A stretch of 64,000 bases of DNA from Escherichia coli (GTDB lineage Bacteria > Pseudomonadota > Gammaproteobacteria > Enterobacterales > Enterobacteriaceae). The stretch lies in the NCBI RefSeq assembly GCF_016026235.1, contig NZ_CP065613.1; one strand, 5' to 3'. This document shows, piece by piece, positions 6,001 to 12,000 of this stretch. Within the stretch, counting starts at the first letter, position 1, and each line of letters starts with the position of its first letter. A program made the position numbers.

Positions 6001-9000
6001 ACCACCAAGAATACCGTAAGCGTTACGGGTCGGGCGGAAATAGATTGGCGTAACATCGCTCATCATCATCAGGTGGGTCAGCGATTTGTGGCAGTTACGG
6101 TCAATCAGAATGGTGCTGCCTGCCGGAGCAGAGTACATGCCAACAATTTTGTTCGCAGTGGAAGTACCGTTGGTCACCATGTAGCTGCGGTCTGCGTTAA
6201 AGACGCGAGCGATATACTGTTCTGCTTCTTTGTGTGGACCACTGTGATCCAGCAGAGAACCCAGTTCAGATACTGAAATGGAAATATCAGATTTCATGGT
6301 ATTCGGACCAAAGAAATCATAGAACAGGCTACCTACCGGGCTTTTCTGAAATGCAGTACCGCCCATGTGACCAGGAGTACAGAAAGTATATTTACCTTCA
6401 CGAACATATTTAAACAGTGCTTTAGTCAGCGGAGGCAGAATAGTGTTGATATATTCGTCAGTGGTCTGCTTGATCTTATTAGCAATATCTTCAGCAGCAC
6501 CCAGCGCATATTCAAAGAAGCTAATCTGTAAACGCAGGTCATTCAGGCTTACATCGAGAGTGGAATACGTATTAGCGAACGCGTACAACGGCAGGTTCTC
6601 GTTCATTTTGCTAATTTCTTCGCACAGCTCGAGATTATATTTATCCCAGTCAAAAATAACGCCGCACAGACGCGCATTGTTTTCGATCAGTTTTAATAAG
6701 TCGTCACGGTCGTTCGGGTAAACAATCTGGAAGTTCAGACGTTCAAGCGCGCGATGAAGTTCACGGATGGGTTCTTCTTTAAAATAAACCCCCATGTGAT
6801 TCAATATTGCAATAACGTTCATAGTCATATCTCCAGGTAAAAAAGGCCCCTCCCAACACATGGGACAAAATGAAAGGAGGAGCCTCGGAAAATACTTTTA
6901 ATTAATGTGCGTTAGACGCGGTGTGGTTATCCATTGAGTGGCTCTGGCGCTCGTGCATTTTGCGAGCGTAGAACATCAGGATAATCAGGCTGACGATGAA
7001 GGTACCTGCCAGCTCGAAGGAGCTTGCGCCCATCAGCGCGATGAAGCAGAACACGCAACCCAGTACAGAGCAGATCAGGCTGACAAAGTTGCGGATGTTA
7101 ACGCCTTCAAAACGAATCAGGTCAACGCAAGAGTAGAAGTACGGCAGCATAGTCAGCAGTACTGCGATACCGGTCAGTTCACCGAACAGGTCAGATGCTT
7201 TACCACCGGCAGAGTTCATCAGAGTGATGAGGATCATCAGGGCAGTCATTTTCACTGCAGCCAGCAGCAGACCTTTTTTCGGAATACCGTTGCTGTCGAC
7301 TTCACCATAAACTTTCGGGAAGTTACCGTCGTTAGCGGCACGTACACCTGCCTGGCCTACCAACATCATCCAGGATCCCAGAGAAGTCAGGCACGCAAAG
7401 GCGGTGAATGCAGAAACCAGCGGCGCAGCCCAGTTACCGAGGATGGTTGAAGCACTGATTGCAAACGGAGCACCGGAAGCTGCCATTACAGAAGATGGAT
7501 ACATACCGGAAAGCACCTGAGTCGCAGCGATGTAAACAATACCTGCTAAACCAGTACCCAGCATGGTTGCCAGCGGAACGGTACGTTTCGGGTTTTTAAC
7601 CATACCAGTACTTACTGCTGCGGATTCAACACCCACGAAGGCCCACAGGCAGAGCAGAATACTTTTAATGATCGCATGACCATCAGTGGTATCCGCAGTA
7701 TTCCAGTTAGCTGCATAAGTTGCCGCATCAAACCAATGCCAGCCAACAATAGCAGTCATCACCACAGGAATAAGAACCAGCACCAGACCAATAGTGGTTA
7801 AACGGCTTACCCAAGTACCGCCGAGCATATTTACAAAGGTAAATACCCAGACGATAGCAATACAGGCGATACCCGCCGGAACAGGATCATTTAATACTGG
7901 GAAGAAGGTGGAAAGATAAGATACCGCGGTAATACCAATCGCCAGGTTACCAATCCAGTTAGCATGGTAATAAAGAACACCTGTCTGAAAACCAAATGCA
8001 GGGGAAATTTCTCCGGCATAAGCAATTGGGCCACCTTGTTGCGGGTTTTTTGTTGCCAGTCGGGCATATACATACGCCAGCGACATTGCACCAATAATAG
8101 AGATAATCCAACCCCAGATAGCAATACCACCGATACTTGCTAGGTTCGCAGGTAATAATGCAATACCGCTCCCCATCATATTACCGGCAACAACACCGGT
8201 ACAGGCAAATAGCCCGATCTTCTTGGCAGAACTCATGCTCTTCTCCTAATTTCATTTTTGAATTTGGAGTCCGGGTCATGATGTATAACTATTTCCTGAC
8301 CAGACCAAACTGGCGCTAAGATTACTCACGAAAAAAGGATTAATCCTAAAGATTAGGTGAAATAACACAAAAGTTTCTGTAAGTGAGAACTTGAGGTTTT
8401 TTATTAACACATCAGGATCGCAAGTTGATATCATGAAAAGATAAACATTCAATGTTTACAATAGATTGCGTGACGTCTTCTGGTTAAATTTATGTAATAA
8501 AAATTATGCGGCAAATAAATTGCCGCAACATATTATACCAACAGGAACATACAAAAACTCAACAACAAATATTCCCTAGCATGAATCAACCCAGGAGTTA
8601 CTTATTCTGAAGCGAGAAATTTGTCGAGATAAGGTACAACATAAGGAACAGAAGTCTGGAATATACCATTTTCAATCCAGTAAAGGGTGTTTGCCCCTGG
8701 GCGTAAATTAAAGGCGGTGAGATATGCATCAGCCGCTTCCCGGTTCATCCCCTTCATTTCATAAACCTTGCCAAGCAACACATAATTTAGCCAGGACATT
8801 TCAAGATCAATGCCAGTATTTATCGCCTGGTAAGACTCATCTGTTTTACCTTTTACCAGAGCACTGACCGCTTTTATTTGATATATAATGGACAGGTTGT
8901 TCAATTCCGGCAGTGTAACAATGTTGTCTATTTCTGTGTTCAGTGCTGCTAATTGTTTTTCATCTAAAGGGTGTTGAGAATGGCGCACGATATCAACTAA

Positions 9001-12000
9001 TGCTTTTTCTGCTCTCGCGTAGGTAAATTCTGGGGATGATTGAACAATCTCACCTAATAATTCACTGGCACGATTCAATGATTTGTCATCGCCATGCAGT
9101 AAATAATCATGAGCCTGATAAAAATTAGTTAATAACGCACCACGATGAGGCAAAATTTGCTGGAGCGTCTCCTGCATTCGTTGTGGCCACGGTTGGTTTA
9201 ACGCTTTTGATAAACTCTCCAGTAAATCATTTTGAATCGCCAGCTGATTACCGTTAGTGATGACATAACGTTTATCCAGCATGGTTGAACCATCTGCATT
9301 GTCTACCAATTTTATCGACATAAAGCATTGTTGAGCACGGTATTGGCGCTGATTAACAAAGGCAATAGATAATGTTTTACCGGAACTGCTCGGTTCATCA
9401 ATGTTGTAGTTGATTTTGTCATGCACCATAAAGGTGGAGAAGGTGTTAAGTGATGTCGCCACCAAATCACCCACGCCTATCGCGTAAGAGAGCTGATACG
9501 GGGAACTCCACTGAGGGATCCCCAGAAAATTTAGTAAACCATTATCATATTGGTATACCGTTGCTGTAGAACTTTCAGCCCTGCGTCAAGTGACAGTGTG
9601 TTTAGTATGAGTGGAGAATGTCGAATCACATTCTCCGCCAGTTTTAATAACGAGATGACTCGCCTGTGCTTCACTGTATTTGCCTGATATTTATGATGTA
9701 TCCCTTTGTTTTCCAGGCTGAAACCGCTTAACCACATAATGATACTGGCTAATGTTGCGATCAGACTCAATACCGTGACCCGCCCGGATGAATGACTGGC
9801 ACCAAACCGTAGTCCAAATCCCCAGCGAGGATTTTTTCATCCCTGAAATTTTGCTCAATTTGCATTCTACGGCTGTATAATTTCATTACCTGTTTTGGCG
9901 AGAACTCAGTACTGTTTGTGAAAATAAACCATGGTGATTTCCCGGCAGTACGAGCTTTAGCCGTCACCGATGGTCTGGTTGCTCTTTCCTTCGAGCGTTT
10001 AAATCTACGACCTTTAGGCTTACTTTTATAAAGATAAAAATGCCCTTCATGTTGTGCATTTTTATCTCGACCCAGCAGGCCTTCACCTAAATAAATTGCT
10101 GTCGTTGATGCTTTTGTGCCTGAGTCCGACACCTTTTCCCAGCCATTACCAACATTGTAATAATGATTGCCCAGTACCCGGCAAATATAGGTCCAGCCAC
10201 GGGAGCGGAGCTGTTGGAACCATCGCCCCTGAAAACCGGCATCTGTAATAACAATGACATCAGTCCCGGGGGAAAAGCACTCAGCAAGCGATTCCAGAAA
10301 ACGCTCATGTACATCTGCATTCGCTGTCTGTGATGATGGAACGACACAACTCATCAACGGTAAAGAACGCCCGTCACATGCCAGGCTTGCCCGCAAAAGC
10401 TGAAAACGAGAGGCATGATAAGCACTCCAGTCAATGAGTATCACAACACGAGACATTCCCCGCGTAATCTTTTGGGTAATTCGCTGAAAAATGGTGGAAA
10501 CCTCATTTTGCAAATGTCGATTCCCCAACAGTCGATCCACCCGCTTTATTTTGTTTTTAACTGATGCCGTACCGGTTAAATGACGCCCGATACTGGTAAG
10601 TGTGAGGGAAGCGCCATTTATTACAGCATTAGTTGCGTCAATCAGTGATTTTTGACGGTAAAGATGCAAAGGGGCCAGTATGTTGTTAAGGAAATTTTGG
10701 CATAATGAACGTGCAGGCATAGTGGTGATCTCCTTGAAATTGTTAGCACAATCAATTAGATCACATCTCACTATGCCTGTCTTGTTTTCTGGGGATTCCT
10801 CAGGGGAACTCCAGCTGTTACAACTTTTATTTACCATATTAATGTCAATATCGCGTGGATTGAGCAAAATACGCGATTTGCTCATCGGAAGACGTGTATC
10901 AAGACTTGAAAACGCTACCAGTGCTACACAGATACCTAAGGACAACAGGAAAAAAAACCATACCCAAAAGGTAGTGAATCGTTTGCTTTTAACTGGGGAT
11001 TGTTCAGGTGGCGTTGCGGTGTTTTGAATGTTAAGGCTGTGGGAGGGAGAATCTGTGGCAGGAACCGCCTCTGGTATAGGGGGAGGCGAAGATAGCATTA
11101 TTTCCTCTCCCTCTTCTTCGCTGTACCAGATAACCGGCACCATTAATTTATAGCCGCGCTTTGGTACAGTAGCGATATAGACAGGACTATCTTCATCATT
11201 ATCTTTTAATGAATTACGTAGTTCTGAGATACTCTGCGTCACAACGTGATTGGTGACAATACTTCTCTTCCAGACATTATCGATAAGTTCATCCCTGCTA
11301 AGTACTTCGCCACTGTGTTGAGCAAAGAAAACCAGAAGATCGATTAATCTCGGCTCAAGGGTAAGTTGACGCCCATTGCGGCTAATTTGGTTTATGGACG
11401 GAGTAACAAGCCATTCGCCAACGCGAACTACAGGTTGTTGCATAATAGAAACTCATTCGAAAAGGGAATGATGCAATGATAATTGCCACAACCTATTTTT
11501 ACCATCTATAGATGGGTTTATTTACATATTATTGGTGAATGCAAGACGTTATTTTTACCAGCCATAAACTTCTTGATTACATGGTATTACGAAAGGATTT
11601 TACTGAGAACCAGAAGTAATATTCCTTACCATCAAAATTCATCATCTTTGCCAAAGAAAAATGTTCAGAAAATAATCCATGGAAAATTGTCCGGAGCGCT
11701 TACTATTTTAATGGATTGTTAGTCTTTGCATGAGCAAGGGGACTGATACATTTCTCTTTGTTCTCATTCAGAAAATCTCATCAGTCGCCGTTCAGACCGG
11801 TGTTGTGCTTTATGGATGCGTTACGCTCCTGATGACGTCATTTGACGTTCAACAGCATCACGGGGTCGCACGACATTTCACGTCAGTTAGTGCTATAGCT
11901 CAGGAACAAATTTTCCCGAATTGGGATATGCCCGCAAATTGCTGGTGATGTGGGGAGAATCTGGTTGAGTTCGGTAGAATTGATTTGGCGGCAGAACGCT

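Follow-up and report, generated by a model that had tools for sequence, protein, structure and literature searches.

In a 64,000-nt stretch of the Escherichia coli contig NZ_CP065613.1 (assembly GCF_016026235.1), hereafter the window, the regulatory gene cadC is split by an insertion sequence (IS) that full-length comparison identifies as ISEc60, of the IS4 family, and the cadBA operon next to it is intact. CadC is a ToxR-like one-component regulator, and the split most likely abolishes the induction of cadBA by acid and lysine, which would leave the strain in a lysine decarboxylase (LDC)-negative state reached by the cadC route of enteroinvasive E. coli (EIEC). Positions of the features discussed are collected in Table 1.

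The cadC gene occupies positions 11443-8602 of the minus strand and is interrupted by a foreign segment of 1293 bp. Translated from its ATG, the CadC frame holds to residue 214 (...NKSCNSWSSP) and then diverges, which places the insertion point after cadC nt 640 (codon 214). An exact 10-bp target duplication, GGGAACTCCA, flanks the segment, and removal of the element together with one duplicate (9511-10813) yields an open 1539-bp cadC of 512 codons, encoding K-12 CadC with only two substitutions, K77N and K328Q. This rebuilt gene sits upstream of cadBA in a local gene order collinear with that of K-12. The two ends of the element, CTGAGGGATCCCCAGAAAAT and CTGAGGAATCCCCAGAAAAC (the latter read as reverse complement), match at 18 of 20 positions and form terminal inverted repeats of 19-20 bp; the sequence across the cadC/element junction is GATACGGGGAACTCCACTGAGGGATCCCCAG. 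A preliminary description of this locus had proposed the split after codon 214 with resumption of the frame past the element, the near-perfect inverted repeats, the 10-bp duplication and the intactness of cadA and cadB, all of which stand. It had also put the break just after the membrane helix; the separation of the DNA-binding domain from the sensor is borne out, but the break itself lies about 30 residues beyond the helix, within the start of the periplasmic domain.

On the 5' side, 213 of the 214 residues are those of K-12 CadC (the exception being K77N), and this part retains the R184 cleavage site and C208, with C272 lost. Pfam PF00486 (Trans_reg_C) is recorded for the identical 5' product in a separate NCBI assembly, GCA_900449985.1. 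The 3' fragment matches NCBIfam NF007540 (CadC) over profile positions 221-515 (E = 1e-127), and PF18500 (CadC_C1) is recorded for the 275-amino-acid gene call that covers this part in GCA_900449985.1. The same assembly bears directly on the reality of the insertion: its contig UGFA01000002.1 (4.56 Mb) has the identical two junctions, and across 7.9 kb around the insertion it is identical to the window bar one base, a T that the window copy of the element lacks. Because the same junctions are present in this independently assembled genome, the insertion of ISEc60 in cadC is real, neither a chance resemblance nor an artefact of assembly.

Over its full length the insert is 99.9% identical (1293 of 1294 positions) to annotated ISEc60 copies, labeled 'IS4-like element ISEc60 family transposase', whose carriers include the EIEC O96:H19 strain CFSAN029787 (on the chromosome and on plasmids), FDAARGOS_943 and other genomes. 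Canonical ISEc60 measures 1294 bp, and the sole difference of the cadC copy is one T missing from a run of seven, without any base substitution. The canonical transposase of 396 amino acids matches NCBIfam NF033591 (IS4 family) with 360 bits (cut-off 152 bits, E = 8.5e-108), and PF01609 is recorded for the transposase-bearing product in GCA_900449985.1. Among named elements ISSfl1 of Shigella flexneri is the closest (52% transposase identity); identity to the IS10A/ISVsa5 transposase is 36% over 93% of the length.

The preliminary description had called the insert a 1,293-bp IS10-like element. That length is correct for this copy, and ISEc60 does share with IS10/ISVsa5 an IS4-family DDE transposase with the Y-2-R-3-E-6-K motif, terminal repeats that begin CTGAG-GATCCCC, a single transposase open reading frame (ORF) beginning some 80 nt inside one end, a symmetric target and a similar size. 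IS10, however, is 1329 bp long and makes a 9-bp target duplication, and we rejected IS10 proper because an element of 1293/1294 bp with a 10-bp duplication fits neither value and its transposase is only 36% identical. By these comparisons the cadC insert is ISEc60, and 'IS10-like' is right at the level of the family only.

The missing T has a consequence for the element itself, in that the transposase frame of the cadC copy shifts after codon 296, directly behind the Y-2-R-3-E-6-K motif (YSRRMQIEQNFRDEK), so that the last 100 residues are lost and the frameshifted transposase is divided among the ORFs at 9767..11443 and 9531..9770. GCA_900449985.1, otherwise identical, encodes the unshifted frame. 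The shortened run may be a true mutation or a homopolymer sequencing error. A programmed frameshift was considered and rejected, since all other ISEc60 copies have one ORF of 396 codons.

The transposase is oriented as cadC is, and the 81 nt from the end of the IS to the transposase ATG contain no stop in the cadC frame; as a result, the CadC frame continues from residue 214 through 27 read-through codons into the transposase. The resulting chimeric ORF had no match in an exact-protein look-up of its 558-amino-acid product. Rebuilt with the unshifted IS it encodes 637 amino acids, and in that form it is exactly a called gene of GCA_900449985.1, with both PF00486 and PF01609.

Two further observations concern cadC as such. 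The K77N substitution (window 11213-11215) falls in the DNA-binding domain and adjoins R76, whose replacement by alanine nearly abolishes DNA binding by CadC (PMC5430869); the codon specifies K in each of FDAARGOS_943, K-12 and GCA_040812635.1, and the change may represent drift following inactivation or a prior weakening of CadC. In GCA_040812635.1, which belongs to an unrelated lineage (~99% identity), cadC has a 1-bp deletion at nt 635 and a substitution at nt 638, with a frameshift at codon 212, and these lesions lie inside the same 10 bp that ISEc60 duplicated in the window. The overlap is probably a coincidence, because a footprint of excision should consist of added bases and not of a lost one.

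Table 1. Positions of the cad genes, the inserted element and their parts in the window
Feature	Position	Strand	Remarks
cadA, lysine decarboxylase, intact, 715 aa	4675..6822	-	100% amino-acid identity to K-12 CadA
cadB, lysine/cadaverine antiporter, intact, 444 aa	6902..8236	-	100% amino-acid identity to K-12 CadB
cadC-cadB intergenic region with cadBA promoter	8237..8601	-	365 bp; terminator-like hairpin after cadC at 8507-8527
cadC 3' fragment, codons 211-512	8602..9510	-	periplasmic pH/cadaverine sensor domain; without its own membrane anchor or export signal
Left target-site duplication copy GGGAACTCCA	9501..9510		
ISEc60 (IS4 family), 1293 bp	9511..10803	-	canonical copies minus one T; transposase oriented as cadC
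Left terminal inverted repeat CTGAGGGATCCCCAGAAAAT	9511..9530		
Transposase gene	9531..10720	-	ATG 10720-10718, Shine-Dalgarno AAGGAG upstream; position from the annotated coding sequence of another copy
Chimeric ORF, 558 codons	9767..11443	-	CadC 1-214, 27 read-through codons (EESPENKTGIVRCDLIDCANNFKEITT), transposase 1-296, out-of-frame tail of 21 residues
T6 run (T7 in canonical ISEc60)	9832..9837		1-bp deletion frameshifting the transposase
Right terminal inverted repeat (reverse complement CTGAGGAATCCCCAGAAAAC)	10784..10803		
Right target-site duplication copy GGGAACTCCA	10804..10813		cadC nt 631-640
cadC 5' fragment, codons 1-214	10804..11443	-	winged-helix DNA-binding domain, linker, membrane helix, first ~30 periplasmic residues including R184 and C208

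The remainder of the cad system is intact in sequence. The exact 365-bp spacer between cadC and cadB is common only to FDAARGOS_943; relative to the LDC-positive O157:H7 it differs at 3 nt, none more than 25 nt from the cadC stop and each over 340 nt upstream of the cadB ATG. Given this position immediately behind cadC, additional lesions in the cadBA promoter were rejected as a contributing factor. We also considered, and dropped, transcription of the cadC 3' fragment or cadBA from an outward-facing promoter of the IS or by read-through: a consensus promoter scan gave 11 promoter-like sites where 9.9 were expected in shuffled sequence, hence no excess, and a terminator-like hairpin follows cadC. 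Among the approximately 60 window genes with K-12 orthologues, cadC alone is not full length.

The expected outcome follows from what is known of the regulator. The periplasmic domain of CadC senses pH and mediates the dimerization without which the cadBA promoter is neither bound nor activated (PMC5430869). When the sensor was swapped for a monomeric foreign domain CadC was essentially off, and forced dimerization gave 30- to 66-fold induction; replacement of the sensor by a dimerizing protein made CadC constitutive (PMC8514426). In PMC5723341 and PMC4156367, the cad region of EIEC is described as collinear with that of K-12, LDC loss as arising mainly through cadC inactivation, and cadaverine production as restored when cadC is supplied to EIEC with intact cadBA. 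We envisage that ISEc60 transposed into a cadC site fitting its target preference and duplicated 10 bp, an event that would remove residues 215-512 and so part the periplasmic sensor from residues 1-214, with their DNA-binding domain and membrane helix. The N-terminal part would run into read-through and transposase sequence on the periplasmic side, with no dimerizing, pH-responsive domain, and the orphan 3' part would have no promoter, anchor or export signal. With the sensor split from the DNA-binding part and the 3' fragment orphaned, no functional CadC should be made, so that the intact cadBA would not be switched on by acid and lysine; the strain is expected to be LDC-negative and to form no cadaverine. 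The preliminary description had likewise predicted that induction by acid and lysine is lost, a prediction in keeping with the published work on CadC and EIEC.

As to why the element landed where it did, ISEc60 has a recognizable target. A 10-bp duplication was found at all 11 of the sites examined (cadC and ten others, one of which reads 11 bp through a chance flanking match) and is the norm for this element. These sites have in common a quasi-palindromic pattern, G-rich, then A/T-rich, then C-rich, or GGGG-(A/T-rich)-CC (examples being GGGGATTTTCCCC, GGGGGAAACCCC and GGGGATAACC), into which the cadC site, cGGGGAACTCCa, fits. Scored with a small, symmetrized weight matrix built from other ISEc60 sites (nine only, some of them from one plasmid hot spot), the cadC site ranked 247th of the 62,680 window positions, i.e., in the top 0.4%, and 16th of the 5,466 positions within cadCBA. 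Target preference thus appears to have contributed to the choice of site and does not single out cadC; as the sole explanation of the location it was rejected, because higher-scoring sites exist. ISEc60 copies on EIEC plasmids were seen to adjoin or sit inside other ISEc60 copies, and they recur at a single plasmid hot spot, marked by the palindrome GGCGGGGATTTTCCCCGCC, in both orientations and on plasmids of both E. coli and Escherichia albertii.

The cadC insertion was absent from all 5,426 complete E. coli genomes searched. The closest of these is FDAARGOS_943, at 99.9% identity on the flanks, in which ISEc60 occupies 38 places, none of them in cadC. By annotation its cadC is instead a frameshifted pseudogene, with 1-bp deletions in two places, nt 487 (within a T-run) and nt 767. 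If these are real, cadC was probably intact in the common ancestor of the two strains and lost separately in both. The region of FDAARGOS_943 homologous to the window has extra IS66, IS5 and IS1 copies in or beside yjeH, groL-yjeI and yjeM; a further IS5 lies between lysU and dtpC. FDAARGOS_943 further has a 155-kb IncF plasmid with the invasion-plasmid genes ipaH9.8, ospG, ospC2, sepA, virK and capU, a phoN-like phosphatase gene and an ipaH fragment; in the 150 kb of this plasmid that were read, no mxi-spa/ipa entry region was seen. ISEc60 also occurs on 200-295-kb plasmids of EIEC and Shigella dysenteriae, and on E. albertii plasmids. By analogy with this relative, the window strain is most likely a member of an IS-rich lineage that is, or once was, enteroinvasive, which lends indirect support to the suggestion in the preliminary description that the cadC loss may bear on the strain's lifestyle.

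We weighed three other explanations. A repeat copy of the IS misplaced into cadC during assembly might be entertained in view of the multiple copies of ISEc60 in related genomes and of the homopolymer-length difference in the window copy, which is typical of sequencing error, but it is next to inconceivable given the exact flanking duplication, of the same length as at ten other ISEc60 sites, the exact restoration of the cadC ORF upon excision, and the identical junctions on a 4.56-Mb contig of another NCBI assembly. Quite unlikely, too, is deregulation in place of loss, in which a membrane-inserted chimera would be clipped at R184 (its tail being unfolded and lacking the C208-C272 disulfide), or would dimerize through its transposase part, and so turn on cadBA independently of pH. 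The retained residues 1-214 do include R184/L185 and C208; in a model published in 2024, DsbC reduces the C208-C272 disulfide and DegP/DegQ cut at R184 to release an active N-terminal CadC fragment (PMC11484849), a dimerizing protein in place of the sensor does make CadC constitutive (PMC8514426), and the fusion ORF is open, over 558 codons in the window and 637 in GCA_900449985.1. We nevertheless rate deregulation low because EIEC strains with defective cadC are LDC-negative and rescued by wild-type cadC (PMC4156367), and because CadC without its sensor, on a monomeric domain, is essentially off (PMC8514426); moreover, CadC activity needs dimerization of the periplasmic domain (PMC5430869), folding or dimerization of a cytoplasmic enzyme is improbable once it has been passed into the periplasm, and the level of CadC is very low. 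Slighter still is the prospect that the chimera is a working protein whose tail is constitutively clipped by DegP/DegQ, or which dimerizes, keeping cadBA on regardless of pH, the cad system then being rewired rather than silenced; if this is true, nature would here have put the proteolytic-activation model of CadC to the test.

More serious, although we still think it doubtful, is the explanation that cadC is null all the same but that its loss was never selected, having come about through an expansion of ISEc60 and other ISs with some target preference, or during the storage of a collection strain. It would fit the clear target preference of ISEc60 and its match at cadC, the IS-rich lineage (the 38 ISEc60 places of FDAARGOS_943, and the IS66, IS5, IS1 and IS3 insertions in its homologous region), the lack of substitutions in the IS copy, from which the event must be recent, the absence of the insertion from the complete E. 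coli genomes, and the resemblance of GCA_900449985.1, judging by the style of its accession, to a product of a culture-collection project. Selection is favored by other facts: cadC is the only broken gene among the ~60 in the window, the nearest relative lost cadC by other mutations, which suggests parallel loss, cadC is documented as a preferential target in EIEC (PMC5723341), and by our own arithmetic 40 random insertions in a 5-Mb genome would hit a given 1.5-kb gene with a chance of only ~1%. Several points do count against an EIEC-type, pathoadaptive loss of cad induction, which we continue to prefer. The enteroinvasive background is drawn from a relative, and the 64-kb window contains no virulence gene; the T-run deletion in the cadC of FDAARGOS_943 could be a sequencing error; better-scoring ISEc60 target sites are present elsewhere in the window, one of them in cadB; a neutral hit in an IS burst, or over decades of culture-collection storage, is possible; and R184 survives in the truncated protein along with the membrane helix and DNA-binding domain, leaving a small chance of residual or deregulated activity under the DegP/DegQ model (PMC11484849).

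Elsewhere in the window, a second IS was found, a full-length 1258-bp IS3 (26216-27473; orfA of 102 amino acids, orfB of 288) that separates ecnB from gdx (sugE) and is flanked by a 3-bp duplication, ATA. An IS3 occupies the corresponding site downstream of ecnB in FDAARGOS_943, but gdx and blc are missing beside it; the IS3 looks ancestral to both strains, with the adjacent deletion arising later in FDAARGOS_943. The 742 bp of K-12 yjeN and yjeO are absent, replaced by 187 bp between yjeM and mscM (36075-36261), probably as ordinary strain variation. The genes efp, epmB and epmA, which supply the EF-P function needed for translating the polyproline stretch of CadC (SSPPPIP), are all intact (24141-25771 and 33413-34387) and are not linked to the insertion. 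Self-comparison of the window also brought out direct repeats spaced by 112 bp at 42575-42875, which are the tandem tRNA-Gly trio glyV, glyX and glyY, arranged as in K-12.

Set against known systems, the kind of event is a textbook one, namely, an IS knockout of cadC that spares cadBA in an invasive E. coli background, and it leaves the understanding of the cad system and of IS4-family elements unchanged. Three things are not described in the literature searched: an ISEc60 insertion at codon 214, the target pattern of the element with its 10-bp duplication, and an in-frame CadC-transposase ORF; no report of ISEc60 in cadC was found there, such mentions of ISEc60 as occur being unrelated to cad. 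The chimera resembles engineered CadC-HA4 and ToxR-PhoA-type constructs, in which a foreign polypeptide likewise follows the DNA-binding domain and membrane helix on the periplasmic side. Those fusions, however, employ folded, export-compatible domains, whereas here IS read-through and a cytoplasmic transposase follow, which are not expected to fold or dimerize.

The closest parallel is the inactivation of cadC in EIEC (Casalino et al. 2003, as represented in PMC5723341 and PMC4156367), in which, as here, the region is collinear with K-12, cadBA is intact and the lesion is confined to cadC. In some EIEC strains, too, the knockout is due to an IS (IS1 in strain 6.81), but the element here is ISEc60, at cadC nt 640. 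A second difference is the standing of the strains, which are invasive in EIEC, whereas the invasive status of the window strain is drawn from a relative. The EIEC endpoint is LDC-negative, without cadaverine and rescued by cadC in trans, and the same would be expected here. An LDC-negative diagnostic phenotype is thus predicted despite perfect cadA and cadB, and typing by gene presence would miss it. The insertion adds an independent allele (ISEc60, codon 214) to the convergent loss of cadaverine through cadC in invasive E. coli and, taken with the differently broken cadC of FDAARGOS_943, suggests parallel loss within one IS-rich lineage; it also hints that an element borne on invasion-type plasmids can itself knock out an antivirulence regulator. 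The erosion of cad in Shigella shares the endpoint, the absence of cadaverine (predicted here), and its arrival by convergent routes that include IS insertions. There, however, the cad locus is usually heavily rearranged or deleted (PMC5723341), whereas in the window cadC alone is affected and the CadA and CadB proteins are those of K-12.

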